63,501 nt of DNA, filler included, from Deltaproteobacteria bacterium (GCA_030698575.1; 8 parts of 8 records of this genome joined end to end with filler, not necessarily neighbours in it), one strand, 5' to 3'; numbered from the whole stretch's first letter, positions 5,967 through 30,320 are shown. The notes: generated from the letters alone by a model not told the origin. Numbers and translations are program-made.

Positions 5967-5968
5967 GA

Positions 5969-8700: not shown

Positions 8701-8764
8701 GAAAGATCGTCCCGGGCGGGCGAGGAGTTCCGCGGGCCTGACGCACCGCGGGGGAGGTGCACCC

Positions 8765-10008: not shown

Positions 10009-12125
10009 TACGACTTCTCTCCCGCGCCGAGCGCCGCGAGGGCCCCGCGCCATCGCGCCCGGTCGCCCTCATTGCGGGCCCGGTCGATGGCCGCCTGGAG
10101 AGCGTCACGGGCGGCGCCGGGGCGTTGCTTCTTCTTCTCGAGCTCGTAGAGCTGGTAGTGGGGCTCCGGCGCCCCCGCGTGATTGCGTAGTGCGGATCTA
10201 ATCGTAGCTTCCGCCTCGGTCAGTCGGCCTAGGTGCATCTGGAGCTTCGCCAGGTTGAGCAGCAGCGAAGGCTCGGCCGGATCCAGCTCGGAAGCTCGCC
10301 GGTACAGCCTTTCCGCCTCCGTCCACCGACCGAAACCGCTATAAATCCCGGCAAGCTCGTTGGCCAGCACGGCATCGTCCGTCTTTAGACGCGAGGCCAG
10401 TTCGACGAGCACCAAGGCGTCCTGAGGACGCTTGCGAAGCTTCAGGATTCCGCCGGACGCCGCGAGAAGATAAGCATGATGGCGAGCCCCCTCCGGATCC
10501 TCCATGACGCCCCGAACCGAGAATTCCTTCCCCAGGAAACCTCTGAGATCCTCAAAATAGGAATCGACTTCAGCGCGCTCAAGATCGCCGACGGGATTTG
10601 GTTCAAATCGCCAGAGATACCGCCAGGGGCGTAGATACTGATAAACGTGCTGATCGAGCTCGCTCATCGGCTCCCAGAATACCGGCGACTTCCCGAGATT
10701 CTCGCGAAGAAGCACCTGGAAATAAGCATCCCAACGCTCAGTCTCTTCCGTGCGTTCTGGCACAACGATCCGCGGGAATCGCTTGGATGTCACCGGCGTA
10801 AAGTGTTCGGGTTCCAGTAGATCACTGACGAGCAGGATCGTTACGTCGGGCCTCATCCCTTCGACATCTTGGAGATAGCGGAAAGGAAACCACTGAGATG
10901 TGACCAGAACGAGAGCGTTGGGGGGAAGGGGCAGGAGATTCGCCTCGGCCGCCGAGCGGCCACCACCGTGCGCGCGGGCCCCCACCCAAGGTAACGCGTG
11001 GCCGACCTGACTCGCGATGGCCACGACGAGGAGGATCGTAACAAGCACTCGCGCGCGACGTGGCTGGAGCAGCCTGCTATCGATCAGCCCCGCCATCCCG
11101 ACGCCAGCCCAAAGCATGAAGAACCAGAAGGTCGGCAAGTACGCATCCGGGATCGTCCATATCCGAAGAAAGAAGAGAAGGTTCCCGAGACAGAACAGGA
11201 GCGTGAACGTCGCAAGCCCCGGCGCACGTCGGAACGCGAGTAGGAGTCCAAGGAGGCCAAAGACCCATCCCGTTGCGGTCAGTTCACTGTCGAGATTTCG
11301 CGCGAAGACCTTGACATACGGCCACCAGAACTTTCCTGTCGCAAAGAGAATTTCGGAATCCTTGCGATCTGAGACGTGGCTCCAAAACCTCACAAGGGTG
11401 TCGGGGTCACCCCAGTTGAACGTGGGCTCCGTCGCTGCCCGTATCGGCAGGTAGAGGTACACCGAGGCACCCAGGACCGCGAAGAGCAGGATCCAGGCGA
11501 GGGTTCTTGGAAGCCGCACCCATGGAACGCCCTTGAGCACGATGAAGACGAGCGCCGGCGCGAAGAAGATCGCGGTCCCGTGTATCCCCCCTGAAAGGCC
11601 GAATAGCAGAGATCCGCCCAGGAGCCAGCGCGTGTCCCCGGTCTCTTCCCAGCGCAGCGCGAGCGCCACGAGAAGCGCGACGGTGAGAACAAACGGAGCG
11701 TACACCTCGGTCTGGGTAGCGTAGGACCAATAGGTGGGCGCTAGTGCCAGGAGCGTCGCGCATCCTAGCCCAACGATCTGGCCCGACCTGGCCTGCCCCC
11801 CCATCCGCACGTGGAGCCTGGCCACCGACCAAGCGAGCAGGGCGGCGGCCGCCACGGCGCAGACCGCCGAGAAGAGATTCAATCGTACCGCGATCGAGCC
11901 TAGAGGGATTAGCGAGAAGAGTTTCCCCAGCAAGGCGTACGTGGGGGTCCCCGGCGGGTGCGCTATGCCGAGGGTGTACGCAACGGTCACCAGTTCGGGC
12001 GTGTCACTCCACCCGATCGTCGGCCGGAGCGTAAGCGAGTAGATGGCGGCCAGACCGGCCGCCCAAACGCCCAGCTGTTGCCCGCCCCCACTCCCCCTCA
12101 TCCTCACATTCCCCGACAGGTGCAT
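10008..12125 (-). CDS. DUF2723/TMEM260-like GT-C glycosyltransferase with C-terminal TPRs
   Basis: DTPELVT..LGIAHPPGTPTY, TEVY, YLYLPIRA..NWGDP; TPR-like C-terminus. Confidence 0.85.
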   Translation of the reverse strand: MHLSGNVRMRGSGGGQQLGVWAAGLAAIYSLTLRPTIGWSDTPELVTVAYTLGIAHPPGTPTYALLGKLFSLIPLGSIAVRLNLFSAVCAVAAAALLAWSVARLHVRMGGQARSGQIVGLGCATLLALAPTYWSYATQTEVYAPFVLTVALLVALALRWEETGDTRWLLGGSLLFGLSGGIHGTAIFFAPALVFIVLKGVPWVRLPRTLAWILLFAVLGASVYLYLPIRAATEPTFNWGDPDTLVRFWSHVSDRKDSEILFATGKFWWPYVKVFARNLDSELTATGWVFGLLGLLLAFRRAPGLATFTLLFCLGNLLFFLRIWTIPDAYLPTFWFFMLWAGVGMAGLIDSRLLQPRRARVLVTILLVVAIASQVGHALPWVGARAHGGGRSAAEANLLPLPPNALVLVTSQWFPFRYLQDVEGMRPDVTILLVSDLLEPEHFTPVTSKRFPRIVVPERTEETERWDAYFQVLLRENLGKSPVFWEPMSELDQHVYQYLRPWRYLWRFEPNPVGDLERAEVDSYFEDLRGFLGKEFSVRGVMEDPEGARHHAYLLAASGGILKLRKRPQDALVLVELASRLKTDDAVLANELAGIYSGFGRWTEAERLYRRASELDPAEPSLLLNLAKLQMHLGRLTEAEATIRSALRNHAGAPEPHYQLYELEKKKQRPGAARDALQAAIDRARNEGDRARWRGALAALGAGEKS

Positions 12126-12232
12126 GTCCGGGTCTCATCGGCGAATGCTCGACAAACTGAAGCGGGGTCCGGACACCGCCCGGACCCCGCCTCCAGCACC
12201 ACCCGGTCTGCCCCGCAGGGGCAAATCAGGTG

Positions 12233-12634
12233 CTAGGTGCTCACGTCGTTGGTAGTGTTCACGGGCTCCCTCGAAGTCTCATGCACTTCCCAGATGTCCG
12301 TCGTAGCGTCGCCATCGATATTGGCGCTGCACGTCCCCGTGAACGTAGTGGCCGCGTACGTGAATTGCGCGGCGATGTTCGAGTAGTACTTCGGGACCGC
12401 GCTCGGCGTGAAGCCGGCGTTTGAGAGCGTGCCGTAGGTGTTCTGCTCAGCGAAATACGCCTGCTCGGCCGTGTACACCGTGGAAAGGAGCTCCTTCGCC
12501 TCGCTCTGCTTCGACTTCGCCTGGAAGCGGAGGAAGTTCGGGATCGCGATCGCCGCGAGGATGCCGATGATGGCCACCACGATCATGAGCTCGATGAGGG
12601 TAAAGCCCTTCCTGTTGCGCAGATTCCTGATCAT
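12233..12634 (-). CDS. pilA: Type IVa major pilin
   Basis: [26 protein letters not shown] prepilin motif. Confidence 0.95.
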
Positions 12635-12738
12635 CTCAGCCTCTCCTATTGAAGATTTGGGGCGATCCTTCTTGCTGCGGCCTTGCCGGCTGTCCTGTGG
12701 ATCGGCCCGATATGTTCCGGAAGCCTTGTGCGCGGCCG

Positions 12739-16556: not shown

Positions 16557-16587
16557 CCTCTCCCGGTCGGGAGGAGGACCCATGGGG

Positions 16588-16703
16588 GGTGATCACGATG
16601 ACCGATCCAGGTGATCACGATGCCGATCTAGGTGATCATGATGGTCCGATCTAGGTGATCACGATGCTCCGATCCAGGTGATCACGATGGAGCGAAACGC
16701 GCA
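16588..16703. mobile_element. IS21-family terminal end with multiple internal repeats
   Basis: Five GGTGATCA(C/T)GATG copies at 16588, 16610, 16631, 16654 and 16677, ending GAAACGCGCA (terminal CA); lies at a contig edge. Confidence 0.75.
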
Positions 16704-16730
16704 GGACCGGGCGTGGGATGATGTTTACGG

Positions 16731-16895
16731 CCCAGTTCAATTTGATAGGGGAAATTGCAGAATCGAACCCTCGTCCGAACGTAGAGAATGTTTCGATCTT
16801 AGGTACATTCCCTCCACCTAGTTGAGACAGTCGGGAAAATTCCCCGATCGGCGAGCCTGGCGGACAGAATCCGTCAGGCTCGTTGCCTTTTCTTC
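16731..16895 (+). repeat. Structured dispersed repeat, copy A (5' part lost next to the IS21 end)
   Basis: CCCAGTTC..TAGGGGA..AGAGAATGTTTCGATC..TTCCCTCCACC plus two hairpins shared with copies B-F. Confidence 0.75.
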
Positions 16896-17123
16896 TATTG
16901 CTTCCACTACTTGACGCAGTCCTGATCTTCCAGACAAGTTCGGACTTGCCAGCTGTCCCGGGGGTCGGTGAACTCGATCGGCATGCAGGGGAGCCCTGGC
17001 ACGATATCGGCCTCGCCGAACCTGCTGAACTGTGATCGATGTATTCGAAGGCGGTGTGTGATTGGCTAGGGGTGGAAAAAGGTGAATGATCTCGAGCTAG
17101 ATGAGCCCTCGGAAACGAGGGGT

Positions 17124-17158
17124 TTGACAGAGGAATTTAGTATGACATATTGTCATAC
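17124..17158 (+). promoter_or_regulatory. TA operon promoter with palindromic operator
   Basis: TTGACA at 17124; perfect inverted repeat GTATGACA-TAT-TGTCATAC at 17140-17158. Confidence 0.7.
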
Positions 17159-17170
17159 CGGAGGCAACGC

Positions 17171-17413
17171 ATGGCCAGATCCAAAGTCGCCGTCACGCTC
17201 GAAGCCGAGACGCTCAACAAGCTGGATCGGCTTGTCCGGAAGAAGAGATTTCGCAGTCGGAGCCAGGCTATCCAGGAAGCCGTGGAGGAGAAGCTCGATC
17301 GCGTGGAACAGAGCAGCCTCGCGCGCGAGTGCGCGAAGCTCGATCCGAATTTCGAGAAGTCACTGGCGGAGGAAGGGATGTCCGAGGACGTGGGCTCGTG
17401 GCCCGAATACTGA
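17171..17413 (+). CDS. Ribbon-helix-helix (CopG/MazE-like) antitoxin
   Basis: [21 protein letters not shown]; overlaps the toxin start. Confidence 0.88.
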
Positions 17414-17736
17414 GGGGAGAAATTCGCTGGGCCGACCTTAACCCGACACGCGGCCGGGAGCAGGCAGGCCAGCGGCCGGTGCTGATCCTGAGTCAGGACG
17501 TCTTCAACGAGCGCTCGGGAACCGTCATCGCCATGGCCCTGACGAGCCAGCCGCAGCGCGCAGGATTTCCGCTGACCCTGGAGCTGGAATCAAGAGGTCT
17601 TCCCAAACGCTCGTGGGTCAAGATCAGCCAGATTCGAACGTTGTCTATTGAACGCATCGGAAAACGCTTGGGGCGAGCCTCCGCGGAAGATATGGGTCAA
17701 GTTATACAAGGCCTGAACGAGATCGTCGGCGCCTGA
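17398..17736 (+). CDS. mazF: PemK/MazF family endoribonuclease toxin
   Basis: [35 protein letters not shown]. Confidence 0.93.
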
Positions 17737-17751
17737 CCGAGGCTCGCGGGC

Positions 17752-17910
17752 GAGAGAATTCTCGATCCCGGGTCCATTCCCTCCACCAATCTGAACCTCG
17801 CGGAAGTTCTCCGCGCGACGAGTCCGCCAGTGATGACTTGGCGGGCTCGTTTTATATGCCCAGTTTCCACCTTTATTTCGGGATGGCGGTGCGGCGGGCA
17901 GAATCCTCGC
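17752..17910 (+). repeat. Structured dispersed repeat, copy B (3' half)
   Basis: GAGAATTCTCGATCCCGGGTCCATTCCCTCCACCA, two hairpins, and a tail nearly identical to copy D. Confidence 0.8.
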
Positions 17911-17950
17911 GGAGTCCCGTGAGGTTTCGAGAGCAGCCGTAGCGGCCGAG

Positions 17951-18304
17951 CTAAGGCACCGAGTGATCTTTCCCATGAATCAGGACCACGAGGCTGGGCC
18001 GCCAATCCTTCCATAGCTTGGTCAGGACAATCCAGAAGAGGCGGTCGGCCCGGCGGATCTGTGGGCGTTTCACATTCCTTTGAAAAACGAGGAGTTGTTG
18101 GCGGAGGGCGACGATCTCAAGAAGGGGCTCGGAACGGTCCCGGCCGAGGTCCCGCAGGAGGGTAAGAAGAAGACGGAGGAAGGACATCGGCGGCTGCCCG
18201 AGTGAGCGGTGCCATCGTGGGCGGCAGAAAGTCGGGAAGCATGCGTTCCGACTGTGATAATCTCAAGCTGGCCTGAGGCCGACGAATTCTTTGCGCTCCA
18301 CAGG
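17951..18304 (-). mobile_element. Truncated IS: left end plus N-terminus of an rve integrase-core (IS3/IS481-like) transposase
   Basis: LLEIVALRQQLLVFQR..RPQIRRADRLFWIVL..W; CCTGTGGAGCGCAAAGAATTC end on the minus strand at ~18303. Confidence 0.7.
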
Positions 18305-18323
18305 GCTGGGCCAAGGGGGACAG

Positions 18324-18869
18324 ATGGCCAAGAAATGCTTGAAATGTGGCTATGAAAGGCAAGCCTCCGATATATCGCCAGATTATGAATGCCCTGGCTG
18401 TGGTGTTATTTATGCGAAAGTAGAATCGGCTCGTGGGCCAAAGCACTTGCATGAAGTTGAGTCCATGACAGTGGGGGAAGACCCAACCGAGTGGGGCTCG
18501 ATACGGTGGCTTTCTGCGATAACTGCGTTCTATATCGTTGCATTTATGCTGAAAATGGGCGAACCGGACAAGCTGTGGTGGTGGCTGATAGCCCTCGTAT
18601 TTTTTGGCTGGCTTTACTCTCCGTTTCTACTGCTCATAAACTTCAGTATGGAAAACAAAAAAGACTCTTCCGCGCTGCGCGTCGTGTTCGTAGCAATGCT
18701 TTTCAATTCGGTTTCCGGCCTCTATCTGTCGTATGAAGCATTTGTCGTATCAAGAACCGACGCAGGCGGTGCAATGATGTTTGGCGTATTGCCAATGTAC
18801 CAACTCGTCATTTCTGCCATCGGAATCGCGGTTGCAAAAGGACAGGCGACAAGGCCCGGATCCACCTGA
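18324..18869 (+). CDS. Zinc-ribbon plus multi-TM hypothetical protein (AT-richer than host)
   Basis: CLKC..CPGC N-terminus and about four TM segments; GGGGGA RBS. Confidence 0.75.
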   Translation: MAKKCLKCGYERQASDISPDYECPGCGVIYAKVESARGPKHLHEVESMTVGEDPTEWGSIRWLSAITAFYIVAFMLKMGEPDKLWWWLIALVFFGWLYSPFLLLINFSMENKKDSSALRVVFVAMLFNSVSGLYLSYEAFVVSRTDAGGAMMFGVLPMYQLVISAIGIAVAKGQATRPGST

Positions 18870-19140
18870 CCTGTGGGTGGCGAATTCCAATTTGTGGCTG
18901 AAAACGAGCGATTCGGCCGGGTTGCTCTGGGGCGCCGTTTGGAACCCAGTTCGGTTCAGTAGGGGAGTCTCGGTATCGAGTCCAAGTCCAAACAGCAGAG
19001 AATGTTTCGATCCCGGGCCCGTTCCCTTCACCAATCCGACCATCGCGGAAACCCTCCGCGCAACGAGCCCGCCAGGCAAGTTCTGGCAAGCTCGTTTTCT
19101 ATGCCCAGTTTCGTATGATTGGCAATTCGCCGTGCACAGG
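18870..19140 (+). repeat. Structured dispersed repeat, copy C (most complete; MITE-like with terminal inverted repeats)
   Basis: Left CCTGTGGGTGGCGAATTCCAA; right TTGGCAATTCGCCGTGCACAGG. Confidence 0.85.
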
Positions 19141-19297
19141 TAGAATGCTCAACACCGCGCCGGCCGGTCTGGAGGCCTCGGGCTGTCCGGAACCGTCGCG
19201 TCCAACGAAGGTCACGATGAATGCCGAGCGACGCGCCCTGTGCGAACACACGATTTTGAAGAGCGCTTCGTCGGCAGGCCCGGCACGGACAGTCGTA

Positions 19298-19759
19298 TCA
19301 GGGCTGAACCGTGCCGTCGGGGCTGACCGAAAAACTCAATGCCGGGTGGCCGTCGACCTGGATGACGCGCGTGAGCTGGACGCCATTTGCCGACAAGCCC
19401 CGGGTCACCAAGGGTTCCCGGCCGGGATCGATGTCGCAAAGCGCGATGTCGTACAGCATGACCCATTGTCGCTCGCCGGCCGACACCGCCTCGAGGCGGG
19501 CTGCAAGGCGGCGTCCTTCGATCGGTTCCAAACTCACGGACGGACCCCAACTCGTGTACAGGACCAGATCAGACACCGCGTAGGAATGAATACAGTGGGT
19601 CCAGTTGGGATCGGAGGATCCGGACGCTTCGTTCTGCTGGACATATTCGAACGATACGGCGACTTCCCTCGCCGCTCCGGGAGGCTGCCCATTGCAGCTC
19701 CAGGCTGCGGCAATCACCCCCAAAACGGCAATTGATCCGACAAGACGGTATGGTCTCAT
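19298..19759 (-). CDS. Hypothetical lipoprotein
   Basis: MRPYRLVGSIAVLGVIAAAWSC lipoprotein-type signal. Confidence 0.65.
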   Translation of the reverse strand: MRPYRLVGSIAVLGVIAAAWSCNGQPPGAAREVAVSFEYVQQNEASGSSDPNWTHCIHSYAVSDLVLYTSWGPSVSLEPIEGRRLAARLEAVSAGERQWVMLYDIALCDIDPGREPLVTRGLSANGVQLTRVIQVDGHPALSFSVSPDGTVQP

Positions 19760-19829
19760 GGTTCGGGCGCTCCCTGACGTTCGAGCCCGGCGGCGGGCTA
19801 ATCGCTTCCGCGAAGCATACAAGAACGAA

Positions 19830-20116
19830 CTGTGGCTGGCGAATTGCAATTTCTGACTGAACATCAGCGAATCGGTCGGGTTTCTCCGGCACGAGGCTTG
19901 GAACCTAGTTCCTTTTGGTAGGGGATTGTTGGTATCGAAGCAAAGTCCGAAGACAGCGAGAGTTTCGGACCCAGGTACGTTCCCTCCACCATGACCGAGC
20001 GAGACGCGCGTCTCGCAGAACTTCGAGCCCGTCGGACAGCCTCCGGCGGGCTCGCTTTCTATGCCCAGTTTCCGCCTTTATTTCGGGATGGCGGTGCGGC
20101 GGGCGGGATCCGCGCG
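19830..20116 (+). repeat. Structured dispersed repeat, copy D
   Basis: CTGTGGCTGGCGAATTGCAATTT..GTCCGAA..TTTCGGAC..TTCCCTCCACCA plus hairpins. Confidence 0.85.
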
Positions 20117-20301
20117 TGACTATTGCGAGTTGCTAATTGCGCCGACATCGGGAGGCGCGGGTGATAGTTCCACCTTCTCGCCTGACGATTCTCCACCGAA
20201 ATGGCTTGCCCTGAGCATACAAGCTTGAATTTCGTTCGCGCCGGGGACCTGTGATCGCGAGTATCGAGGCGACCTGGTCCCCGTCGAAAAGAAGTAGATG
20301 A

Positions 20302-20420
20302 TTGACGCGGAGGCTATCGCCGGCTACTGTACGTCATCTGATTGGTGCGTCCGACCCGGGCGCGCAGACGTACCGGAGACCAAATAAAGAGGGACCTGGC
20401 GCGTGTTCAGGTTCCTTTTA
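20302..20420 (+). promoter_or_regulatory. Promoter plus terminator-ended leader, copy 1
   Basis: TTGACG-N17-TACTGT; AGGGACCTG..CAGGTTCCTTTT. Confidence 0.65.
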
Positions 20421-20610
20421 TTCGTTGGGCGCGGTTCGCCGGGAAGAGCGCGGGAGGGGACCGTGCCAAGATAGGAACGGGATTGGGGCCAGCCTCGTGA
20501 ACGGGGATGGCCCCGACTCTTTATGAACTAAGCCGCACCATCCCGCACGGATGTTCTGGCATGTCGAACGACAACGTCCGTCCTTGAGCGCGCGCGCGGC
20601 TGGAGGGACT

Positions 20611-22905
20611 ATGAACCAGGTGACGACCGAGGGAGCGATCCGAAGAATTGCCGTGCTTGGCAACCACATGCCGCGGCAATGCGGGATCGCCACTTTCACG
20701 ACCGATCTGAGCAACGCGATCGCTTCCGAGTTCTCGGATTTGGATTGCTTCGTGCTGGCGATGAACGACTCCGGGACGCATCACGTCTACCCGTCCCGGG
20801 TTCGTTTCGAGGTTACTGAAAAGGATATCGCGGCGTACCGGCGGGCGGCGGACTTCTTGAACGTCAACACGGTTGACGTTGTGAGCGTGCAGCACGAGTA
20901 TGGAATCTTCGGTGGGAAAGCCGGCAGTCACGTCCTGGCGCTGCTGCGCGAGCTGCGGATGCCGATCGTGACGACGCTCCACACGATCCTAGGCGAGCCC
21001 AATTTACTGCAGCGACAAGCGATGGATGAGCTCTGTGAGCTCTCGGAACGCCTCGTCGTCATGAGCGCGCACGGGGCGGCGCTTCTTCGTGAGATTCACG
21101 GTGTTCCGGAGCACAAGATCGACCTGATTCCCCATGGCATTCCGAGCGTACCCTTCGAGAGCGGCAGTAAGGACAAACTCGGGGTCGAAGGCAAATCGGT
21201 CATTCTCACTCTCGGACTCCTCTCGCCGGACAAGGGGATCGAGCACGTCATCGATGCGCTCCCCGAGATCCTCGCGCGCTGCCCGGACACGGTCTACATC
21301 GTGTTGGGCGCCACCCATCCACATGTCAAGGAGCGTCACGGGGAGACCTACCGGCTCATGCTCGAGAACCGCGCCAAGAGCCTCGGCGTGGACTCCAGCA
21401 TGATCTTCCACAATCGTTTTGTGAGTCCGGATGAGCTCGCAGAGTTTCTCTCCGCCGCGGACATCTACATCACGCCCTATCTCCAACCGGATCAAATCAC
21501 ATCCGGAACGCTGGCCTACGCGGTGGGATCTGGCAGGGCCGTGATCTCGACTCCGTACCTGTACGCGCGCGAGTTACTCGCCGAGGGGCGCGGGATACTC
21601 GTTCCATGGAGAGACCCACAGGCTATCGCACGGGAGGTCATCGGCCTCCTTTGCAATGATGCCAAGCGGTTCGCCCTCCGCGAGCGCGCGGCGGCCCATG
21701 GCCGCGACATGCTGTGGCCTGCGGTCGCGCGCCGGTACGTGCAGAGTTTCGAGCAGGCGCGCGCCGAGCACGACGACCGCCGACGCACGTCCTTCCAGGC
21801 AAAGACGCTTGCGAAACGGCCCGCCGGGCTACCGGAGATCAATCTGGAGCACCTCCGCCTCATGACCGATGATACCGGCGTGCTGCAGCATGCGCTTTTC
21901 AGTATTCCACACTACGCCGAGGGCTATTGCCTCGATGACAACGCTCGCGCAGTACTCTTGATGGCGCTCGTCGAGGACGACGGCCTGGAGGACTTCAAGG
22001 CTGTGCGTGCGCTGGCGTCGCGCTACCTCGCCTTCGTGAGCCATGCTTTCAACGAGAAGACTGGACGGTTCCGAAACTTCCTGTCGTACTCCCGCCGATG
22101 GACGGAAAAGTGCGGATCGGAAGACAGCCATGGGCGCGCGCTCTGGGCATTGGGTGCGGTCGTCGGCCGCTCCAGCGATCCGGGAAGGCAGAGTCTTGGT
22201 GGCGATCTTTTCCATGCCGCATTGCCGGCGATCTCGAACTTCACGAGCCCGCGCGCGTGGGCATACGCGCTCCTGGGGATCGACGAATACCTTCGGGCCT
22301 TCGAGGGCGACAGCAACGTGCAGACGGTCCACAAGGTGCTCGCGGAGCGCCTCCTGGACCTCTTCCGGCGGTCAAGCGGGGACGATTGGCCGTGGTTCGA
22401 AGATCGCGTCACCTATTGCAACGCGCGGTTGTCACAAGCGCTCATCGTGTCGGGTTCCTGGCTCGATAACGAGGAAATGACAGCCGCTGGTATGCGATCG
22501 CTCGAATGGCTGGCCTCGATCCAGAGGTCGAAGGACAGCTACTTCGCCCCGATCGGTTCAAATGGCTTCTACAAGCGAGGTGAGCCGATCGCTTTGTTCG
22601 ACCAGCAACCCGTGGAGGCCTGTGGGATGGTCTCCGCCTGTCTCGATGCGTACCGCATGACGGAGGACAAACGCTGGTCCGAGCACGCGCGCCGCGCATT
22701 CAATTGGTTCCTCGGGCAGAACAATTTGCAACAATCGCTCTACGACGCGTCGACGGGTGGATGCCGTGACGGCCTACATCCCGATCGCACAAATGAGAAC
22801 CAGGGTGCGGAATCAACGCTGTCCTTCTTGCTCGCTCTTCTCGAAATGCGCTCGGCCGATCGCCCCGACGTGGCCAAGCCCGGTTCCCTGGAGCTCAGAT
22901 CATGA
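20611..22905 (+). CDS. GT4 glycosyltransferase fused to a six-hairpin glycosidase-like domain
   Basis: PRQCGIATFT, QHEYGIFGG, DKGIE, SGTLAYA; YCLDDNARA, FDQQP, NENQGAESTL. Confidence 0.9.
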   Translation: MNQVTTEGAIRRIAVLGNHMPRQCGIATFTTDLSNAIASEFSDLDCFVLAMNDSGTHHVYPSRVRFEVTEKDIAAYRRAADFLNVNTVDVVSVQHEYGIFGGKAGSHVLALLRELRMPIVTTLHTILGEPNLLQRQAMDELCELSERLVVMSAHGAALLREIHGVPEHKIDLIPHGIPSVPFESGSKDKLGVEGKSVILTLGLLSPDKGIEHVIDALPEILARCPDTVYIVLGATHPHVKERHGETYRLMLENRAKSLGVDSSMIFHNRFVSPDELAEFLSAADIYITPYLQPDQITSGTLAYAVGSGRAVISTPYLYARELLAEGRGILVPWRDPQAIAREVIGLLCNDAKRFALRERAAAHGRDMLWPAVARRYVQSFEQARAEHDDRRRTSFQAKTLAKRPAGLPEINLEHLRLMTDDTGVLQHALFSIPHYAEGYCLDDNARAVLLMALVEDDGLEDFKAVRALASRYLAFVSHAFNEKTGRFRNFLSYSRRWTEKCGSEDSHGRALWALGAVVGRSSDPGRQSLGGDLFHAALPAISNFTSPRAWAYALLGIDEYLRAFEGDSNVQTVHKVLAERLLDLFRRSSGDDWPWFEDRVTYCNARLSQALIVSGSWLDNEEMTAAGMRSLEWLASIQRSKDSYFAPIGSNGFYKRGEPIALFDQQPVEACGMVSACLDAYRMTEDKRWSEHARRAFNWFLGQNNLQQSLYDASTGGCRDGLHPDRTNENQGAESTLSFLLALLEMRSADRPDVAKPGSLELRS

Positions 22906-23855
22906 CGTCGAACAACGGATTCGAGGAACTTTTTCATCGACATGAGAAAAATCCGATCCTGACAGCCGCGGACTGGCCCTATCCGGTTCATACCGTCTTC
23001 AATGCCGGGGCCACGCGGCTCGACGACGGCACGACGCTGCTACTGTGCAGGGTCGAGGATCGCCGGGGCCATTCGCACCTGTGTGCCGCGCGATCGGCCA
23101 ACGGCGTCGACGGCTGGGTCATCGACAGGGAGCCGACGCTTCGGCCCGATATGAAGAACTACCCCGAGGAGATTTGGGGGATCGAGGACCCGCGAATCAC
23201 GTATGTTAACGAGCTTGGCAAGTACGCTATTGCGTATACGGCCTTCAGCCGGGGAGGGCCGGGCGTCGCGCTGGCGCTCACCGAGGACTTCCTGCATTTC
23301 GAACGCTGCGGACTGATCATGCAGCCCGAGGACAAGGACGCGGCCCTGCTCCCGCGCCGCATCGACGGGAATTTCGCGCTCATTCACCGTCCAGTGACGG
23401 ACTCGGGCGCGCACATCTGGATCTCGTACTCTCCGGATCTTCGAAATTGGGGAGGTCATAAACTGGTTCTGCAGGCCCGCCGGGGGGCCTGGTGGGACGC
23501 GAACAGGGTGGGGCTCTCTCCACCCTTGATCGAAACGCCCCGGGGGTGGCTGATGCTCTATCACGGCGTTCGTCAAACGCCGGGTGGGTGCCTGTATCGC
23601 CTCGGAGTCGCGTTGCTCGACCTGAACAAGCCGGAGCAATGCCTCCTGCGCGGCGAGCCGTGGATCTTCGGCCCCGAGGCCCCCTATGAGCGAAACGGAG
23701 ACGTTGGAGACGTCACATTCCCATGCGGTTACACGCTGGGTGACGACGGTGATCGAATCAATCTCTACTACGGCGCGGCTGACACCAGCGTGGCGCTTGC
23801 GACTGGGAGCATCCGCCAGCTGCTCAACTGGCTCGATGAGCACGGGATCGCGTAG
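22902..23855 (+). CDS. GH130 family glycosidase/phosphorylase
   Basis: VFNAGA, GIEDPRIT, DKDAAL, LIHRP, YYGAADT. Confidence 0.92.
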   Translation: MTSNNGFEELFHRHEKNPILTAADWPYPVHTVFNAGATRLDDGTTLLLCRVEDRRGHSHLCAARSANGVDGWVIDREPTLRPDMKNYPEEIWGIEDPRITYVNELGKYAIAYTAFSRGGPGVALALTEDFLHFERCGLIMQPEDKDAALLPRRIDGNFALIHRPVTDSGAHIWISYSPDLRNWGGHKLVLQARRGAWWDANRVGLSPPLIETPRGWLMLYHGVRQTPGGCLYRLGVALLDLNKPEQCLLRGEPWIFGPEAPYERNGDVGDVTFPCGYTLGDDGDRINLYYGAADTSVALATGSIRQLLNWLDEHGIA

Positions 23856-23889
23856 GCGCGGACACAACGCGGAGTCGGATTCATTGGAA

Positions 23890-24283
23890 CCTGTGGGTGG
23901 CGAATTACAATTTGTGGTTGATAAACAGCAATGCTTCCGGATTGTCCCGGAGGCCGTTCTGTCCGCCGCTTCCCCGCCATGAGGGCCCTGTTCGTCCTGC
24001 GGGGACACCTGCTGACGACGATCGCCAGGCACCTTCGCCCAGGTGGCAGGCGGGGTGGCCGCGCTCTCTCAGCTCCCGACGGCGGTGCCACTAGCAATTC
24101 GCTATACACACCTACGCGCCGCTCTCGCATCCGTTCGTTGAACGGCTGATCGGGACCACGCGCCGGGAGTTCCTGGACCACACATTATTCTGGAATGCGA
24201 GAGATTTGGAGAGGAAGCTGGGCGACTTCAAGGAGTATTATAATGAGGATCGCGTGAACGCGGCCCTCGGAGGCGACATTCCG
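23890..24283 (+). mobile_element. Internally deleted rve integrase-core IS remnant (its left end equals the repeat-family end, copy E)
   Basis: CCTGTGGGTGGCGAATTACAATTT end; N-terminal HLLTTIARHLRPGG (from 23979); C-terminal PYAPLSHPFVERLIGTTRREFLDHTLFWN..YYN (24110-24283). Confidence 0.75.
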
Positions 24284-24309
24284 CGTCCCGCGGCATTTAC
24301 GTGAATCGC

Positions 24310-25140
24310 TCAGTTCGCCTTCGCTTCGGCGGGAACGGGCACGTTGAGTCTGGCCAGTTCGGCGTTGATGACCTTGGCGAACTCCTCGAAGGGTTTCGCC
24401 CCGACAACGAGGCGCCCGTTGATGAAGAAACTCGGCGTCCCGGTTGCCTGGAACGACTGAGCTTCGGCCTTGTCCGCGTCGATAACTTTCTTGTTTTCGA
24501 GATCGAGAAGGTCTGCCTGAAATCTCTCCATATCCAGACCCAACTCCTGCGCATAGGTCTGCAGGTTTTCCTGCTTGAGGGCCTTCTGGTTGGCGAATAG
24601 TTTGTCGTGGTATTCCCAGAACTTATCCTGCTTGTGCGCCGCCAGTGCAGCCATGTGAGCGAGGGGCGCGTCCGCGTGGAAGTCCAGAGGATTGTGTTTC
24701 CAGGCGATCCGGACTTTGTCGCCGTAGATCTCCTCGACTTTTTTCAGGGTCGGACCGACCCTTGAGCAGAACGGACACTGGAAATCAGAGAACTCGGCGA
24801 TGGTAATGGGCGCGTTGGTCGGCCCTTTGGAAGGAGCCCCCGTGGTATTCACCTTGTAGACCCGATTGAGATCGGGGCCGGGGCGCGCTGGTTGCGCAGG
24901 CTGAGCCGCCACTTGTTCCACCTTGGCGGAGACCTGGCCGACCCGATTCTCAATTTGGGCTAACCGGGTATCCAGGGTGGTCTGGATCCGGCTGATCTCT
25001 CGCCAGTTCGAGAAAGAAATAATCAGCAACAACACGACCCCTGCCATGATGGCCGCGCGTAGTCCTTGGCCGCCCTGCTTGCCTGCTGGCTGTGGGGCCG
25101 CGCTCTCCTGTTTGTGCCCTTCCTTCCGATTTGCTGCCAT
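24310..25140 (-). CDS. DsbA family thioredoxin-fold protein
   Basis: EFSDFQCPFC, GTPSFFING, N-terminal TM. Confidence 0.92.
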   Translation of the reverse strand: MAANRKEGHKQESAAPQPAGKQGGQGLRAAIMAGVVLLLIISFSNWREISRIQTTLDTRLAQIENRVGQVSAKVEQVAAQPAQPARPGPDLNRVYKVNTTGAPSKGPTNAPITIAEFSDFQCPFCSRVGPTLKKVEEIYGDKVRIAWKHNPLDFHADAPLAHMAALAAHKQDKFWEYHDKLFANQKALKQENLQTYAQELGLDMERFQADLLDLENKKVIDADKAEAQSFQATGTPSFFINGRLVVGAKPFEEFAKVINAELARLNVPVPAEAKAN

Positions 25141-25208
25141 TCTTAGGCTACCTCCTCGTCAACGCATCTATCATACAGGAAACACCGGGGTTGTGTTCGA
25201 TTCCGCAT

Positions 25209-25563
25209 ATGGGCGGCGAATTGCAACTTCGTACCAGAAAACAGGTGTTTTGGAAAATTTGCCTGGTGGTGGTGACCGACACCAAGTCCGAGAAAAGAGA
25301 GGGTTTCGATCCAAGGTCCGTTCCCTCCGCGAAAACTCGACTTCGAACCCCAGTCCGAATCCCGAGAATCGCTTTCTCGGAGGGGGATTCTCTGAGAGCC
25401 TTTCGACGTCTGGTGTTCCCGCCACCATTTGAAACATCGCGGAAGTTCTCCGCGCGACGAGCCCTCCAGGCAATGCCTGGCGGGCCCGTTTTCTATGCTT
25501 TGTGGCTGGCGAATTCTACTTTACGGCTGAAAATGAACGATTCGGCTGGGTTTCTCGACAGGG
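25209..25563 (+). repeat. Structured dispersed repeat, copies F and G in tandem
   Basis: GGCGGCGAATTGCAA..GTTTCGATCC..TTCCCTCC..CCCGCCACCA, CGCGGAAGTTCTCCGCG hairpin, terminator-like hairpin; a new left end TGTGGCTGGCGAATT starts at 25501. Confidence 0.75.
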
Positions 25564-25637
25564 TTTTCTGCCTTGCGCTTCTCCGCTAGGAAGGACTTTG
25601 CGGTGGGTATTCGAGATACTGAAGCCAGCGTGAAGAA

Positions 25638-25904
25638 CTAGACGCCATACACAGGTGGCCCCAACGCTTTATCGCCAATAGCGAACACCGTATTAGTGGT
25701 CAGCTTGGTGACGTTATGGGCGGCCCGCCCTTCGGCGTCCTCCACAAGGTCAAACTCCACGCTCTCACCCTTGGCAAGCGACTTGAAGCCGTAACCATGG
25801 ATTTCGGAGTAGTGGACGAAAAGGTCCCTCTCTCCATTCCCTGGCGTGATGAGCCCGAAGCCCATGGTATCGTTGAACCACCTTACCGTTCCGATGAAAC
25901 GCAT
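25638..25904 (-). CDS. csp: Cold-shock protein with C-terminal extension
   Basis: GTVRWFN..GFGLI..DLFVHYS. Confidence 0.9.
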   Translation of the reverse strand: MRFIGTVRWFNDTMGFGLITPGNGERDLFVHYSEIHGYGFKSLAKGESVEFDLVEDAEGRAAHNVTKLTTNTVFAIGDKALGPPVYGV

Positions 25905-26045
25905 CGCGGTACTCCCATCATTGGTTTTCTAGGGGGTCTTCTCTAGTGTGCGGAAACGCCATTCTGCCGTTCCCAAGCTAATCGCAGATTCTGATCCCTG
26001 GACGGCATGTGATGACGCGTCCCCCCCAGTTCTCATCCCTCAAAA

Positions 26046-26175
26046 TACAGAAAGGGACCGGCCTCCGAGCCAGGTCCCTTTTCGTTCTCTGGTGCGGCAG
26101 CACGCTTAACCATAAGAACCGGCACGCCATTTATCGCTTGCGGTGATAAGTAGCCCGTTCCTCGCTGTGCGTCAA
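26046..26175 (-). promoter_or_regulatory. Promoter plus terminator-ended leader, copy 2
   Basis: Minus strand TTGACG-N17-TACTTA; GCTGCCGCACCAGAGAACGAAAAGGGACCTGGCTCGGAGGCCGGTCCCTTT. Confidence 0.7.
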
Positions 26176-26198
26176 TGTTCATCTCGCCGAGGGGAGGC

Positions 26199-26260
26199 GT
26201 GCGCATGGCGAATTCCAAATTTGCGCCTGAAGACATGCATTTGAGCAGGGTTGCTCCGGA
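26199..26260 (+). repeat. Structured repeat, left-end fragment (copy H)
   Basis: TGGCGAATTCCAAATTT..CTGAA..GGGTTGCTCCGG. Confidence 0.55.
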
Positions 26261-26400
26261 CTGCGGCGTGCCCTACGCTTTCCTTGGCGCCTGATTAGGA
26301 ATTCGCCATGGACCGGGCGCCGGCCTACTGGGACCCGATTGACCCAGATTTGAAAATCGTCAATGATTTCGTAGCAGGCGGATTCCTGGAGGTGGACGGT

Positions 26401-26652
26401 ATGGAAAAGCTTTCGTTCGTCGCCCTGACCGTGCTGCTGCTGAATCTGCCCTTCGGTTACTGGCGCGCAGGATCGCCCAAGTTTTCACGAAGCTGGTTTC
26501 TCGCCATACATATTCCCATCCCTTTCGTCATCCTGTTGCGCATAACAAGCGGACTCGGGTGGCAGCTGGTCAGCTTTCCCGTCGTGGTGGGCGCATTCTT
26601 CGTGGGGCAGTTACTGGGTGGCCAGATTCGAATGTGGCGCATGGGCAACTAG
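26401..26652 (+). CDS. Small conserved hypothetical membrane protein
   Basis: LNLPFGYWRA..KFS..WFLAIH; GGAGG RBS. Confidence 0.75.
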   Translation: MEKLSFVALTVLLLNLPFGYWRAGSPKFSRSWFLAIHIPIPFVILLRITSGLGWQLVSFPVVVGAFFVGQLLGGQIRMWRMGN

Positions 26653-26780
26653 ACACGAAGGACTCGGAGGACCGAGGAGGACACGTCGGGCGCTCATTGT
26701 GAGCGCGAGGTCCGAATGCGAAAATCCCTCATAACCTCAGCTCGGCCTATAACTTACCTAAGAACAAGAGAGTCGGCTCT

Positions 26781-27275
26781 ATGAAGCCAGCGGACACACA
26801 GGGGACCCCAGCCGATGCGCGCGCCCCAGCCGCGGAATCGGGGACTGAAGTCCTGACCGATGGCATCCTCCTCACTTTCAAGTTCGTGGAGACCCATCTG
26901 ATCGGAGAAGAGCGCCGCTTCTACAAGGAGCTGAAGCCGGGCGAGTACATCCCTCTTGAAAGCCTCATGCCGATCTGGGAAGCCCTGGTCGAGAGAATTC
27001 CGAAGGAGCTGAAGGCGGCGATCAAGGGAATGATCTTCCGCACCAAGAGCCTTCTGGCCGAGACGGGCGTACGGAGGCCTGCCGATGCCATGCGCGTCTC
27101 GAACGTGCTCTACCAGACGTTCAACCGCGGGCCGCGGCTAGGCGGGGTCGAGGCCGTTCTTCGCGCCTTCGGCGCCCGGGCCGTGCGCATCGAGCATCTG
27201 ACCCCCTGCCAGCGCCGGGGAGAGCGCTACTGCCGCTACCGGGGACGGTGGTCGGGCGTTAAACAATCGGCCTGA
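26781..27275 (+). CDS. Hypothetical protein with V4R-like C-terminus
   Basis: C-terminal CQRRGERYCRY..W. Confidence 0.5.
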   Translation: MKPADTQGTPADARAPAAESGTEVLTDGILLTFKFVETHLIGEERRFYKELKPGEYIPLESLMPIWEALVERIPKELKAAIKGMIFRTKSLLAETGVRRPADAMRVSNVLYQTFNRGPRLGGVEAVLRAFGARAVRIEHLTPCQRRGERYCRYRGRWSGVKQSA

Positions 27276-27342
27276 CCCCGACCGATCTCCCTCGAATCAC
27301 CCGAGCTGCCTGGATCCCCGGTTATCCGAAGCGCGCCGAGCA

Positions 27343-27369
27343 ATAAGTCAATAAGTCACGCCTGACCCC
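27343..27369. repeat. 27-bp dispersed REP-like repeat, copy 1
   Basis: ATAAGTCAATAAGTCACGCCTGACCCC, identical at 55277-55303. Confidence 0.8.
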
Positions 27370-28438
27370 GGATGAAAAGCAGGAAGCCCACAACGATCAA
27401 GACAGGCAGCAGGCGCCAAGGCTGCGGGATGGCTGGAACCTCGATCGGATTCTGTGTCAGTGTCTCGTTCTCGAAGAAGCTCCAAATCTCGATGGCGGTT
27501 TCGATGTCGTGGTTCTGCTTGCCGAAGATCTGTTCGATCTCCGGCGTGGCCTGGTGGCTGATGCTCGACGTGAGGTGGCCGGCCCCGTTGACCCTGTAGA
27601 ACGCCACCCGCTTTCCCCCGATCCCGCCTGTGTATAGATCGAACTCGACTACGCCGCCGTCGTTCGGATCCAGGTCCGGAAAGACGGTGTGCTGCGGCAT
27701 CGGAGTCGTCCCCAGCAAGCTCCGCCAGTAGTCGCGGGTCTGCTCCGCCGAGAGAACGCTCCCACGGTTTCCGATCACCTGCCCGCCTCCCCAGGGCATG
27801 TACACGTCGGCCGTACTGTTCATGATGAGCAGTGACGGGCGGTTGACGGGTAGCGGCACGCACTCGCTGTTCACGGGTTGATTGGCCACGATCCCGGCCA
27901 CCGCCGCGATCCGGTCCGACAGCTCGAAGGCGAGCCGATAGGACATCATCCCCCCGTTCGAGGGCCCCGTCGCGTAAACGCGCAGCGCGTCGATGTTGAA
28001 GTTCACCTCCATCCAATCGACTAGCGCACCGATAAAACCAACGTCGTCCGCGCCCGTCTCGGATACTCCCGCGTCGTTCCGGCAGTCGTTCCAATTGAAC
28101 TCGCCCATCGGTCCCGACAGGCCGGTCCCCGGAACGGTGCCGTTCGGCGCAACGATGATGAACTTGTGAGTGTCGGCGAGGCCGGCGAACCGGCTGAGGG
28201 CTCCGACCGTGACGTCGTCCTTGCTTCGACCGCCTCCGTGGAGAACCAGCAGGAGGGGGACGTGTGACGCCGGCAGGCCGAAGGGGAGGTAATAGTTGAA
28301 GTAGCGGGTCACGCCGGCGTGCTGCAGCGTGACGTTCTCCACGAGCGTTCCAAACTGGGCGAGAGCGGTCCTGGGAAGCAGGAGGGCGCCGGCGAACACA
28401 AGAGCCAGCGCGGGCATGAGGCGAGTCACAGCGGACAC
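27356..28438 (-). CDS. LpqC/PHB-depolymerase-like secreted esterase with C-terminal sorting signal
   Basis: LVLHGGG, DDVGFI, YATGPSNGGMM nucleophile elbow, AGH; C-terminal VPAI plus TM. Confidence 0.85.
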   Translation of the reverse strand: MSAVTRLMPALALVFAGALLLPRTALAQFGTLVENVTLQHAGVTRYFNYYLPFGLPASHVPLLLVLHGGGRSKDDVTVGALSRFAGLADTHKFIIVAPNGTVPGTGLSGPMGEFNWNDCRNDAGVSETGADDVGFIGALVDWMEVNFNIDALRVYATGPSNGGMMSYRLAFELSDRIAAVAGIVANQPVNSECVPLPVNRPSLLIMNSTADVYMPWGGGQVIGNRGSVLSAEQTRDYWRSLLGTTPMPQHTVFPDLDPNDGGVVEFDLYTGGIGGKRVAFYRVNGAGHLTSSISHQATPEIEQIFGKQNHDIETAIEIWSFFENETLTQNPIEVPAIPQPWRLLPVLIVVGFLLFIRGQA

Positions 28439-28614
28439 TCCAGGAACTCCGGGGACGGAGTCAGTCCGGGGAGGGGTATTCTATACCGATGGACTCGCTG
28501 AACGCCATTGATTTCAATGAAGTAGCAGAGCCCCACAGCGAACAGGGGGGAGACGATAAAGGCCTATGGGGGTTGAGTTTCGGGGCTTCGGGGCGCGCCC
28601 GGCAGCTATTTTTA

Positions 28615-28735
28615 TTGACGCGCCTGAAGCAGCATGCTACAAACCGGGCCTAGCAAGAGGCGCGCCGCTCGATTTGGCACGCTGCCGTACCAGTGAACGA
28701 TAAAGGGACCTGGCTCGGATGCAGGTTCCTTTTTG
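28615..28735 (+). promoter_or_regulatory. Promoter plus terminator-ended leader, copy 3
   Basis: TTGACG-N17-TACAAA; GCTGCCGTACCAGTGAACGATAAAGGGACCTGGCTCGGATGCAGGTTCCTTTTT. Confidence 0.7.
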
Positions 28736-28890
28736 TTTGTCAGGGGTGGTAGCCGGAGAGCGCGTGCCGGGGGATGGGCGTCGATGACGCGTCATAACCC
28801 GCCGTACGCGGGGCACAATCCGCGAATAACTTGTAGTCGGTAGGTACGGCATTGCCGGGCCCCGACCACATGAACGATGGGAGTACCGCA

Positions 28891-29103
28891 ATGCGTTCCA
28901 CCGGAACGGTTAAGTGGTTCAACGATAGCAAGGGCTTCGGTTTCATTACGCCGGAGAACGGAGAGAAGGATCTGTTTGTTCACCACTCCGCGATCCAGGC
29001 AGAGGGCTTCAAGTCACTCACCGAAGGCGAGCGAGTGGAGTTCGACGTCGTGCAGGGCCAGAAGGGCCCCGCCGCCGAGAACGTGGTCAAGCTGGATCGC
29101 TAG
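28891..29103 (+). CDS. csp: Cold-shock protein (CspA family)
   Basis: [24 protein letters not shown]. Confidence 0.97.
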
Positions 29104-29133
29104 TAGCACGTTTGCCAGCGACGAAAGAACAGC

Positions 29134-29173
29134 GGGGGCCACTCCTCGGAAATCGGGGTGGCCCCGTTTTTTT
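29134..29173 (+). terminator. Intrinsic terminator
   Basis: GGGGCCACTCC..GGGGTGGCCCC followed by T7. Confidence 0.75.
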
Positions 29174-29288
29174 CTGAAGGATCCGCAGGCCAAGCCATCT
29201 ATTCAAGTTCCCGCATTCCGTTTTCAGCGATTTGCCCCCCAGAAACGCCGGGTCGGGTCGGGGTAGTTCCGTACAAACAGGAGAATTC

Positions 29289-30320
29289 ATGCCCGTGATC
29301 GGCAGCCGCACCGAGGATCGCCACCTGGCCGAGCATTGGAGGAAGATCGTCGTTCCCTATCGTGGCGCCGACACCGGCCGAAGCGTCGTGCAACTCGCGA
29401 CGACGGTATGCTTCTTCGCAGCCTCGTGGGCCGCGATGCTCTGGAGCATGGATGTCAGCTACCTGCTCACCCTCCTGTTCGCTCTGCCGGCCTCGGGGTT
29501 TCTGATTCGCCTCTTCATGATCCAGCACGATTGCGGGCATGGATCCTACTTCCAGCATCGACGCGCGCGAGACTGGGTCGGTTTCTGCATCGGGGTGATT
29601 ACCTTGATCCCCTACCGGTACTGGCGGAGGACGCACGCCCACCACCACGCGCATTCGGGGAACCTTGACTTCAAGAGCTTCGGCGACATTACGACTAAAA
29701 CGGTGCGCGAGTACCAGGAGTTGCCTCGACGCCGCAAGCTTGCCTATCGCCTCTACAGGCACCCGATCATCCTGCTTGGCATCGGCCCCACTTATCAGTT
29801 CGTGTTCAAGCACAGGTACCCCTGGGACATGCCTCGCACGTGGAAGAAAGAGTGGGGGAGTGTCTGGTGGACGAATCTATGCCTGGCGGGAATCGTCGTA
29901 CTGATGGCCCAGACGATCGGGCTTCAGCGGTTTCTGCTGATTCAGGTGCCTGTGACGCTAATGACGTGTACGATCGGGGTCTGGCTCTTCTACGTGCAGC
30001 ACCAGTTCGACAATACGTACTGGCGCCGGCAGCCCAATTGGAACTTCTTTGATGCGGTCCTCCAGGGGAGCTCGCACCTGGTCCTGCCGAAGCCGCTCCA
30101 GTGGATCACCGCCAGCATCGGGCTCCACCACGTGCACCACCTGAGCAGCATGATTCCGAACTACAAGCTCCAGGAATGTCTCGATTCCTGTCAGTCGCTC
30201 CAGGCAGCCACGCGGGTGAGAATCAAGGATACGTGGAAACTCCTCCGGCTCACTCTGTGGAATGAAGAGACAGGCCGGCTCGTCACCTTCGGGGATCTCC
30301 AGCAAAACCGATCGATCTAG
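29289..30320 (+). CDS. Membrane fatty acid desaturase
   Basis: Histidine boxes HDCGH, HAHHH and HHVHH. Confidence 0.93.
   Translation: MPVIGSRTEDRHLAEHWRKIVVPYRGADTGRSVVQLATTVCFFAASWAAMLWSMDVSYLLTLLFALPASGFLIRLFMIQHDCGHGSYFQHRRARDWVGFCIGVITLIPYRYWRRTHAHHHAHSGNLDFKSFGDITTKTVREYQELPRRRKLAYRLYRHPIILLGIGPTYQFVFKHRYPWDMPRTWKKEWGSVWWTNLCLAGIVVLMAQTIGLQRFLLIQVPVTLMTCTIGVWLFYVQHQFDNTYWRRQPNWNFFDAVLQGSSHLVLPKPLQWITASIGLHHVHHLSSMIPNYKLQECLDSCQSLQAATRVRIKDTWKLLRLTLWNEETGRLVTFGDLQQNRSI

Follow-up and report, generated by a model that had tools for sequence, protein, structure and literature searches.

In a 63.5-kb stretch of DNA from a Deltaproteobacteria bacterium (the window), positions 16731 to 26260 hold eight co-oriented repeats that separate single accessory genes, in the manner of a cassette array. 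We propose that this array is probably a nest of insertion sequence (IS) copies and miniature inverted-repeat transposable elements (MITEs) in a low-GC accessory region, where one MITE lineage carries a captured 3′ end of ssrA, the gene for transfer-messenger RNA (tmRNA). Apart from the one unusual passenger, most of it is the common debris of transposons rather than a dedicated gene-capture system. Although the repeats are real, their interpretation as a cassette system is largely wrong: the striking array resolves into IS ends, MITEs and copies of a tmRNA-gene end, so that our analysis is mainly the correction of a misreading. The identities of the two shared blocks, an IS end and a tmRNA-gene end, are observed in the alignments; from them we infer how the array was constructed.

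The window joins eight unlinked contigs of a 653-contig, 4.13-Mb genome bin through 100-nt spacers of N and TTAATTAATTAA, and the array forms the start of one of these contigs, C349 (window 16557-39851). The GC content is 59.8% at window 16557-30000 versus 65.2% in the rest of the contig and 65.4% in the genome.

The repeats carry the ends of an IS481-like insertion sequence

Direct-repeat search and reading of the sequence recovered all eight repeats in the places originally reported, all on the + strand. The block TGGCGAATTNCAAYTT, allowing up to two mismatches, occurs six times in the window, at 18878, 19837, 23898, 25214, 25507 and 26206, always on the + strand; in 100 shuffles the mean count was 0.08 and none reached six. 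All six matches fall inside the array, in agreement with the earlier observation that the window holds no copies elsewhere. Since the window is made of unlinked contigs, this absence says little about the neighborhood.

The first shared block (TGTGG.TGGCGAATT.CAATTT) is the left inverted repeat (IR) of a 1,196-bp IS481-like insertion sequence. On contigs C458, C242 and C89, a transposase open reading frame (ORF) starting MKHLFILLGHLLTTIARLLG follows it after 87 nt; this ORF encodes a 362-aa DDE transposase with HTH_32, rve and rve_3 domains, and its stop codon overlaps the right IR (..GATTAGCAATTCGCCATGCACA). The termini of the element are TGTGG...CCACA. A single rve-type DDE transposase with an N-terminal helix-turn-helix, TG...CA termini and a length of about 1.2 kb recall the IS481 family and the IS3 superfamily. 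The best NCBIfam match is indeed IS481 (NF033577), followed by IS3; the score, however, lies below the family cut-off (107.9 versus 224 bits), and we therefore name the element IS481-like only.

An iterated nhmmer search of the genome with the first ~58 nt of this block yielded 18 copies on nine contigs (five on C349, four on C576, three on C121 and six singletons), and a similar search yielded 16 right IRs. A sixth, degenerate left end of C349, at window 25208, was caught by the full-unit model and by the TGGCGAATTNCAAYTT pattern. Paired left and right ends delimit two intact copies of 1,196 bp (C458 and C242, with transposase proteins that share 82.6% identity) and nine short ones of 115-226 bp. 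The terminal IRs of the array copies match those of the autonomous IS of the same genome (C458, C242), and the short copies, of 115-270 bp, hold no ORF with a Pfam match. The left ends are clustered: none of 20,000 random placements brought at least 4 of the 18 within 7.4 kb. Still, 13 of the 18 lie on eight contigs other than that of the array.

MITEs belong to the non-autonomous IS derivatives, among which the "mobile insertion cassettes" hold passenger DNA flanked by IS ends. Three of the eight repeats are MITEs made simply by internal deletion. MITE 1 (23892..24110, +, 219 bp) runs from the left IR into the beginning of the transposase frame and, after an internal deletion, ends in the right IR (C349 7507-7554). 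MITE 2 (25501..25655, +) starts about 10 nt after the terminator of the preceding unit and has a degenerate right end, and MITE 3 (26200..26313, +, 115 bp) is reduced to the left and right IRs. The view that all eight repeats are copies of one element did not hold, as these three are IS ends only, with or without remnants of the transposase gene. The shared blocks of the original prediction are present, with two restrictions: the first is missing at 16731 and 17752, and the GAGAATGTTTCGATCC..TTCCCTCCACCA block is confined to five units, here called A to E (starting at 16706, 17750, 18872, 19831 and 25208). Of its two proposals, that of a hotspot of one MITE/IS family fits what we found: the first block is the left IR of an IS with a 362-aa rve-type transposase, right IRs close unit C and the copies at 23892, 25501 (degenerate) and 26200, and two transposase fragments lie in the array.

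One of these fragments (24113-24301, +) follows MITE 1. It corresponds to the C-terminal residues 273-333 of the transposase of the same IS family (79% identity, 48/61, E 2e-32). Contigs from the metagenome runs X1-X3 have a different sequence just before 24111-24113, and we accordingly take the fragment as an older transposase copy that was cut there by MITE 1; by our reading of 30 letters, the upstream sequence in X1-X3 is transposase-coding. The contigs of the metagenome runs (X1-X5) are short unitigs, and neither stretches that they leave uncovered nor joints with sides of less than 30 nt were counted as evidence.

The copies resemble MITEs in several respects: the IRs match those of a resident autonomous IS, the copies measure 115-270 bp and lack a transposase, and they are many, dispersed and intergenic, some overlapping gene ends. 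They differ from ordinary MITEs by a passenger made of an ssrA 3′ end and a terminator, by strong clustering, by co-orientation and by the lack of visible target-site duplications.

We also considered whether the IS inserts behind terminators as a rule, and rejected this idea. The 48 nt upstream of 29 left ends have a mean folding energy of -13.0 kcal/mol versus -13.8 kcal/mol in 400 random genome pieces (one-sided p 0.90), yet four or five copies do follow a hairpin.

An array of integron-like cassettes with non-canonical sites would also show co-oriented repeats between single accessory genes, as integron attC arrays do, but we regard it as highly improbable. As originally stated, attC boxes are absent: on both strands of 16557-26400, there are 0 RYYYAAC...GTTRRRY pairs versus a mean of 1.16 in 100 shuffles. 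Furthermore, neither IntI nor, by reading, an evident whole-site palindrome is present, the genes lie in both orientations, contig C349 holds none of the 15 tyrosine recombinase (PF00589) matches of the genome, its left boundary being a contig break, and the repeat itself is made of an IS end and a tmRNA-gene end.

A degenerate tmRNA-gene end occupies the place of the transposase gene

The second block of the units, ending TTCCCTCCACCA, first looked like a tRNA acceptor end; it is a degenerate tmRNA-gene 3′ end. The original prediction had named ssrA as something to look for, without recognizing it in this block. The sole tmRNA gene of the genome is located at C498:3499-3858 (ARAGORN, tag ANDNYALAA; RF00023, 195 bits), and C498 stops 76 nt past it, just beyond its terminator. 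Positions 19025-19105 of unit C are 91% identical over 81 nt to the DNA that runs from the ssrA CCA through the terminator, and the full-unit profile matches C498 3817-3930 (E 6e-25). On C498, ssrA comes after panC, panD, a DUF502 gene and a methyltransferase gene.

Units A to E carry the last ~40-110 nt of ssrA, degenerate, in place of the transposase gene. In C, D and E, and in A as judged by its tail, the IS left end extends over ~58-80 nt, about to the transposase start codon, and the ssrA-like segment follows. Upstream of the CCA, the likeness to ssrA is weaker and starts at the T-loop (TTCGAT), which in the units is preceded by a conserved GAGA(A/G)TG that is absent from ssrA. Farther upstream, another ~60 nt of A, C and D can be loosely aligned with the last ~110 nt of ssrA. 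A shared 5-6-nt indel sets the units apart from ssrA, and the 5′ T-stem strand is missing from them, so that their tmRNA ends are not functional. ARAGORN detected no tRNA or tmRNA gene in any unit, nor in 10 related loci, and the RF00023 search of the genome matched no unit. In Rfam, the array gave no meaningful match at E values up to 10, and at gathering thresholds the whole window gave only three ordinary tRNAs.

Unit C (18872..19138, +) is the only complete copy. It opens with the left IR and IS left end (18872 to about 18950) and closes with the right IR (19117-19138); in between lie an ssrA-like segment that ends at 19033 with CACCA, a hairpin and, at about 19064-19094, the terminator. 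Unit A (16706..16895, +) retains the tail of the IS left end and then an ssrA-like segment that ends at 16819 with CCACCT, followed by a hairpin and the terminator (16849-16885); the full-unit model matches it at C349 157-337. Unit B (17750..17911, +) has no IS end; it starts 14 nt past the stop codon of a mazF-like gene with an ssrA-like core that ends at 17788 with CCACCA. Behind the core, a hairpin precedes the terminator (17820-17849) and a 3′ extension that is also present in unit D (92% identity). In unit D (19831..20116, +), the left IR leads into an ssrA-like segment that ends at 19991 with CCACCA; then come a hairpin that differs in sequence, the terminator (20024-20054) and this 3′ extension. 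Unit E (25208..25500, +) has a degenerate left IR and two cores, E1, ending CCTCCGCG at 25331, and E2, a longer and less deleted ssrA-like fragment ending CCACCA at 25427, followed by a hairpin and a terminator; here the full-unit model matches C349 8652-8943.

The first hairpin after the CCA varies in sequence among the copies and keeps its place, and in the terminator stem 5 of 13 pairs are kept through changes on both sides (11 sequences). Terminators of the type GAGCCCGCCAG..CTGGCGGGCTC occur at only five sites in the genome. They are also found behind tRNA-Ala(GGC) (C326:4963-5112) and tRNA-Glu(CTC) (C573:4211-4355), both on minus strands. The same terminator behind tRNA-Ala, tRNA-Glu and ssrA points to a local style of stable-RNA terminator. 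The mean pairwise identity is 0.86 in the core versus 0.79 in the repeat tip, a comparison that is biased and not usable for core conservation, since the metagenome copies were fished by a core-internal pattern.

These features would also suit a small RNA gene, in which the IS end acts as promoter, the tRNA-like part forms a 3′ domain and the hairpins end a transcript, the RNA or its terminator serving the element or its neighbors. Besides the covarying terminator, the first hairpin of A, D and the metagenome copies keeps its place despite different sequences, the left IR contains a -10-like TNCAAT that is spanned by one promoter-like site (23884-23911), and the terminator is of the type that follows tRNA-Ala, tRNA-Glu and ssrA. 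Such a role seems quite unlikely, however. No Rfam family corresponds to the unit (the best, ar14, scores 29.1 bits versus a cut-off of 58.8), ARAGORN finds no tRNA or tmRNA in it, its tRNA-like part is unable to form a T-arm, and the terminators were perhaps kept as harmless or useful in intergenic DNA.

Assembly of the array

We favor the IS/MITE nest because the IS is intact in the genome and because plain MITEs share the array and its orientation; moreover, unit C has both ends, the units stand singly at unrelated loci elsewhere, and there is no integrase. A possible pathway would start with an IS copy beside ssrA, or beside an ssrA fragment, that picked up the adjacent DNA. Loss of the transposase gene would then have left a MITE with a passenger composed of the ssrA 3′ pseudo-copy, the hairpin and the terminator. 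Copies of this MITE may have spread by transposition in trans and by local rearrangement, unit B having lost its IS part. The intervening genes would be resident or island genes that happen to sit between insertions.

Several observations weigh against this pathway. The capture event itself was not observed. The co-orientation is left unexplained: it is complete on each contig with several left ends (6/6 on C349, 4/4 on C576 and 3/3 on C121), and random transposition does not predict it. GC skew on the IS strand is positive in seven of nine contigs, with tiny values that are not informative on IS orientation. The flanks of the 11 left/right pairs show no consistent target-site duplication, so that transposition of the units is inferred rather than demonstrated; both intact IS copies have GG on either side. 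Among units A to E, a right IR is recognizable in C alone, none being seen in A, B, D and E. Finally, junctions accumulate at the CCA end. In unit C, identity to ssrA jumps there from low values to 88-91%; E1 gives way to E2 at the CCA end of the core; CCACCATGACC is immediately followed by the start of a MITE on C101 and by that of a different IS in L102; the left end of unit C begins after ..TCCACCTGACC; and a contig of run X1 joins A to C at the CCA end. These junctions look like a recombination site rather than random decay, and their pile-up suggests that this short sequence is a breakpoint favored by mobile elements of more than one type.

A more novel scenario is that the IS-borne ssrA end acts as a portable landing pad, with a DDE transposon spreading a mimic of the ssrA attachment site. 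Each copy would then offer other elements a secondary site for integration or insertion immediately behind the CCA end; candidates are site-specific recombinases such as the DUF2924-serine recombinase module of contig C121, and the IS family itself. Accessory genes would then gather between co-oriented units, and the array would be built jointly by the transposase and an ssrA-targeting recombinase. We consider this scenario unlikely.

A possible relation to ssrA-integrated islands

As a gene-capture array with new recombination sites, the proposal in its original form is not upheld: there is no recombinase on C349 or C576 and no attC-type box pair, and in other metagenomes single units occur at unrelated loci, with no second copy within at most 2 kb on each side. 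Gene capture in another form may still be conceived, as arrays of tmRNA-gene 3′ fragments are known scars of ssrA-integrated islands. The units could be attachment-site scars of small islands that integrated successively into the ssrA 3′ end, each leaving a co-oriented fragment; the IS left end would then simply belong to the conserved sequence flanking the attachment site, or it would have arrived later. We judge this explanation, the main rival of the nest, rather unlikely.

The closest known parallel is found in Dehalococcoides, in which, according to McMurdie et al. (2009, 2011; PMC2764846, PMC3146451), ssrA islands are tandem and ssrA-specific, with up to 11 ssrA-end repeats, a non-ssrA motif just upstream of them and insertion at the T-loop, together with serine recombinase modules, 15 islands being without any module. 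Our array shares with those islands, as described there, the co-oriented tmRNA-gene 3′ fragments, the extra similarity around the repeats with an upstream non-ssrA motif and a T-loop breakpoint, and accessory cargo in low-GC DNA, many islands lacking an integrase. The Dehalococcoides arrays lie downstream of ssrA, whereas here the contigs of the array and of ssrA are unlinked; furthermore, the intervals there are of about 10-20 kb versus about 1-4 kb here, and our repeats are unlike the end of the resident ssrA, are joined to an IS left end and lack an adjacent integration module of the DsiB/CcrB type. If the array were contiguous with ssrA, the tandem ssrA island locus of the Dehalococcoides type would be extended to another lineage.

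In the present genome, co-oriented tmRNA-gene 3′ ends with terminators do separate accessory genes in low-GC DNA, their likeness to ssrA starts at the T-loop after a conserved non-ssrA motif (GAGAGTG), and the junctions at the CCA end fit, as does the end of the ssrA contig 76 nt past the gene, which would suit a variable site. Recombinases are available as well: the genome has 15 tyrosine (PF00589) and 4 large serine recombinase matches, and on C121 a serine recombinase with DUF2924 lies beside a hybrid of a left end and a unit. Contigs of run X5 (cave metagenome) weakly hint at another order of the toxin-antitoxin and GT4-GH130 blocks, with sides of 22-91 nt and 90% likeness. However, the repeats are unlike the resident ssrA 3′ end, given the 5-6-nt indel and the missing 5′ strand of the T-stem, and only the DNA after the CCA of unit C is close to it (88-91%); with this mismatch, they look like unrecombined sites of the element type and not like displaced host ends. 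None of the recombinase matches lies on C349 or C576, where the ORFs yielded no recombinase domain and no integrase. The "islands" would measure about 1 kb and often hold a single gene, the plain MITEs without an ssrA part are equally co-oriented, and metagenome contigs carry isolated units far from any second copy.

Contig C121 (L172) shows further features of its own. A ~66-nt conserved stretch at 840-905 and 9755-9820 (80% identity), followed by hairpins, precedes two DUF2924 genes (genes at 1652-2239 and 10557-12664), and a 527-aa large serine recombinase gene comes after the second DUF2924 gene. At 9667, an IS left end is fused to the second 66-nt copy, which is similar to the units in its 5′ part and diverges from them at ..GAGA(T/G)TGGTT. 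Rfam gave no match here at E up to 0.01. Positions 3893-9322, flanked by an rve-type IS and the serine recombinase module, encode a 1,810-aa RHS-repeat protein with TSP3 repeats.

The left edge of the array and its probable continuation

The contig begins with the end of an inserted element (16557..16705, +) that contains five GATCAYGATG-centered, ~22-nt direct repeats and interrupts the left IR of unit A. This end had been taken for that of an IS21 element, but the true istA/istB pair of the genome, on C576, has different ends. The 22-nt repeats (CCGATCYAGGTGATCAYGATG), four to five in number, are present at window 16602-16690 and at 60-147 of C576 (L171), and nowhere else in the genome. The element with these subterminal repeats abuts positions 49 to 1 of the left repeat on C576 and the tail of unit A on C349. 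C576 and C349 thus both begin with the two ends of one element, and C576, reversed, most likely lies just left of C349. Joined in this way, the nest would most likely span about 20 kb, with 10-11 co-oriented copies. C576 carries its four left ends on one strand, among DsbA/DsbB, Na+/H+ exchanger and DUF411 genes and transposase fragments. No exact 40-nt end overlaps exist among C349, C576 and C498. On C576 (L171), a DsbA-like gene overlapped by a DsbB gene (545-1635) echoes the DsbA gene at window 24310-25140.

Distribution in related genomes and metagenomes

Among 40 relatives searched, matches of any kind were found only in two genomes of the same family, and the composite of left end and core occurs in another genus of this family (G002), whose contig is the one locus that the strict core pattern retrieved over species genomes. 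ssrA was not found in G001 or G002. A looser pattern gave at least 120 metagenome loci, and seven of the matches listed were true by nhmmer; four of these seven (L103, L072, L105 and L106) have the composite in a shorter, ~190-nt form. The metagenome units adjoin unrelated genes (radical SAM, Amt and RluA-type). No integrase domain was detected beside them among the larger ORFs scanned (41/72), and nhmmer found no second unit within up to 2 kb on each side.

It is unusual for a MITE lineage to keep a tmRNA-gene 3′ end and a terminator as passenger in different genera of a groundwater lineage, itself poorly sampled, and in a narrow literature search no published MITE with this kind of passenger was found. 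Such a MITE could explain ssrA-like attachment sites that lie away from ssrA.

In L106, ~250 nt at 1580-1830 end in a perfect T-arm and acceptor-CCA (GCGGGTTCAAATCCCGCCCCCGCTACCA) with their own terminator. This stretch is not an ARAGORN gene and matches weakly a group I intron model (42.3 bits, cut-off 50) and tmRNA (19.8 bits); the left end of the unit starts 8 nt past its terminator.

Genes and remnants between the repeats

Of the genes named in the original prediction, RHH, MazF, GT4, GH130, DsbA and csp (CSD) are supported by Pfam. Between units A and B lie an RHH (CopG-type) antitoxin gene (17173..17413, +; PF01402, E 1.1e-06, on 17150-17410) and a MazF/PemK toxin gene (17329..17736, +; PF02452, E 5.3e-31). 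Between B and C, a remnant of a second rve-type IS (17951..18300, -) consists of an N-terminal transposase fragment (17951-18184), 49% identical (33/68, E 3e-19) to the N terminus of the C121 rve transposase and without a Pfam match, and of a likely IR near 18262-18300, seen by eye. It is followed by a 181-aa ORF (18324..18869, +) with CxxC..CxxC at its start and hydrophobic stretches, which matched 0 Pfam and 0 NCBIfam families. This is the gene whose stop codon had been seen to abut the third repeat: it ends at 18869, 2 nt ahead of unit C, and its last codons (..TCCACCTGA) resemble the CCA end of the core.

Between C and D, a 153-aa ORF (19301..19759, -; 0 Pfam families) has an N-terminal signal-like stretch ending in Cys. 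A promoter-like site at 19119-19146 (10/12 matches), with its TTGGCA box in the right IR of unit C and its TAGAAT box in the flank, faces outward, toward the region of this minus-strand ORF. A partial terminator-like remnant (19766..19830, +) precedes unit D, with a stretch that recurs about 400 nt downstream (repeat families 79% each), and a right IR remnant in the opposite orientation follows it (20122..20154, -; nhmmer, C349 3598-3566, E 4.1e-05).

The longest interval holds the genes of a 784-aa GT4 glycosyltransferase and a GH130 phosphorylase (20551..23855, +; Pfam); the GT4 query had no match at E<=1e-20 in the two genomes of the same family. Beyond MITE 1 and the transposase fragment lies a DsbA-like thioredoxin-fold gene (24310..25140, -; PF01323, E 5.4e-27), and a cold-shock protein gene (25638..25904, -; PF00313, CSD, E 5.8e-24, residues 4-66 of 87) stands between MITEs 2 and 3. 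The right end of MITE 2 reaches into the last codons of this csp ORF (25638-25655), and the ATG of an ORF at 26308-26652 falls inside the right repeat of MITE 3 (26300-26313); with gene ends overlapping these repeats, the insertions may have remodeled the ends of the genes.

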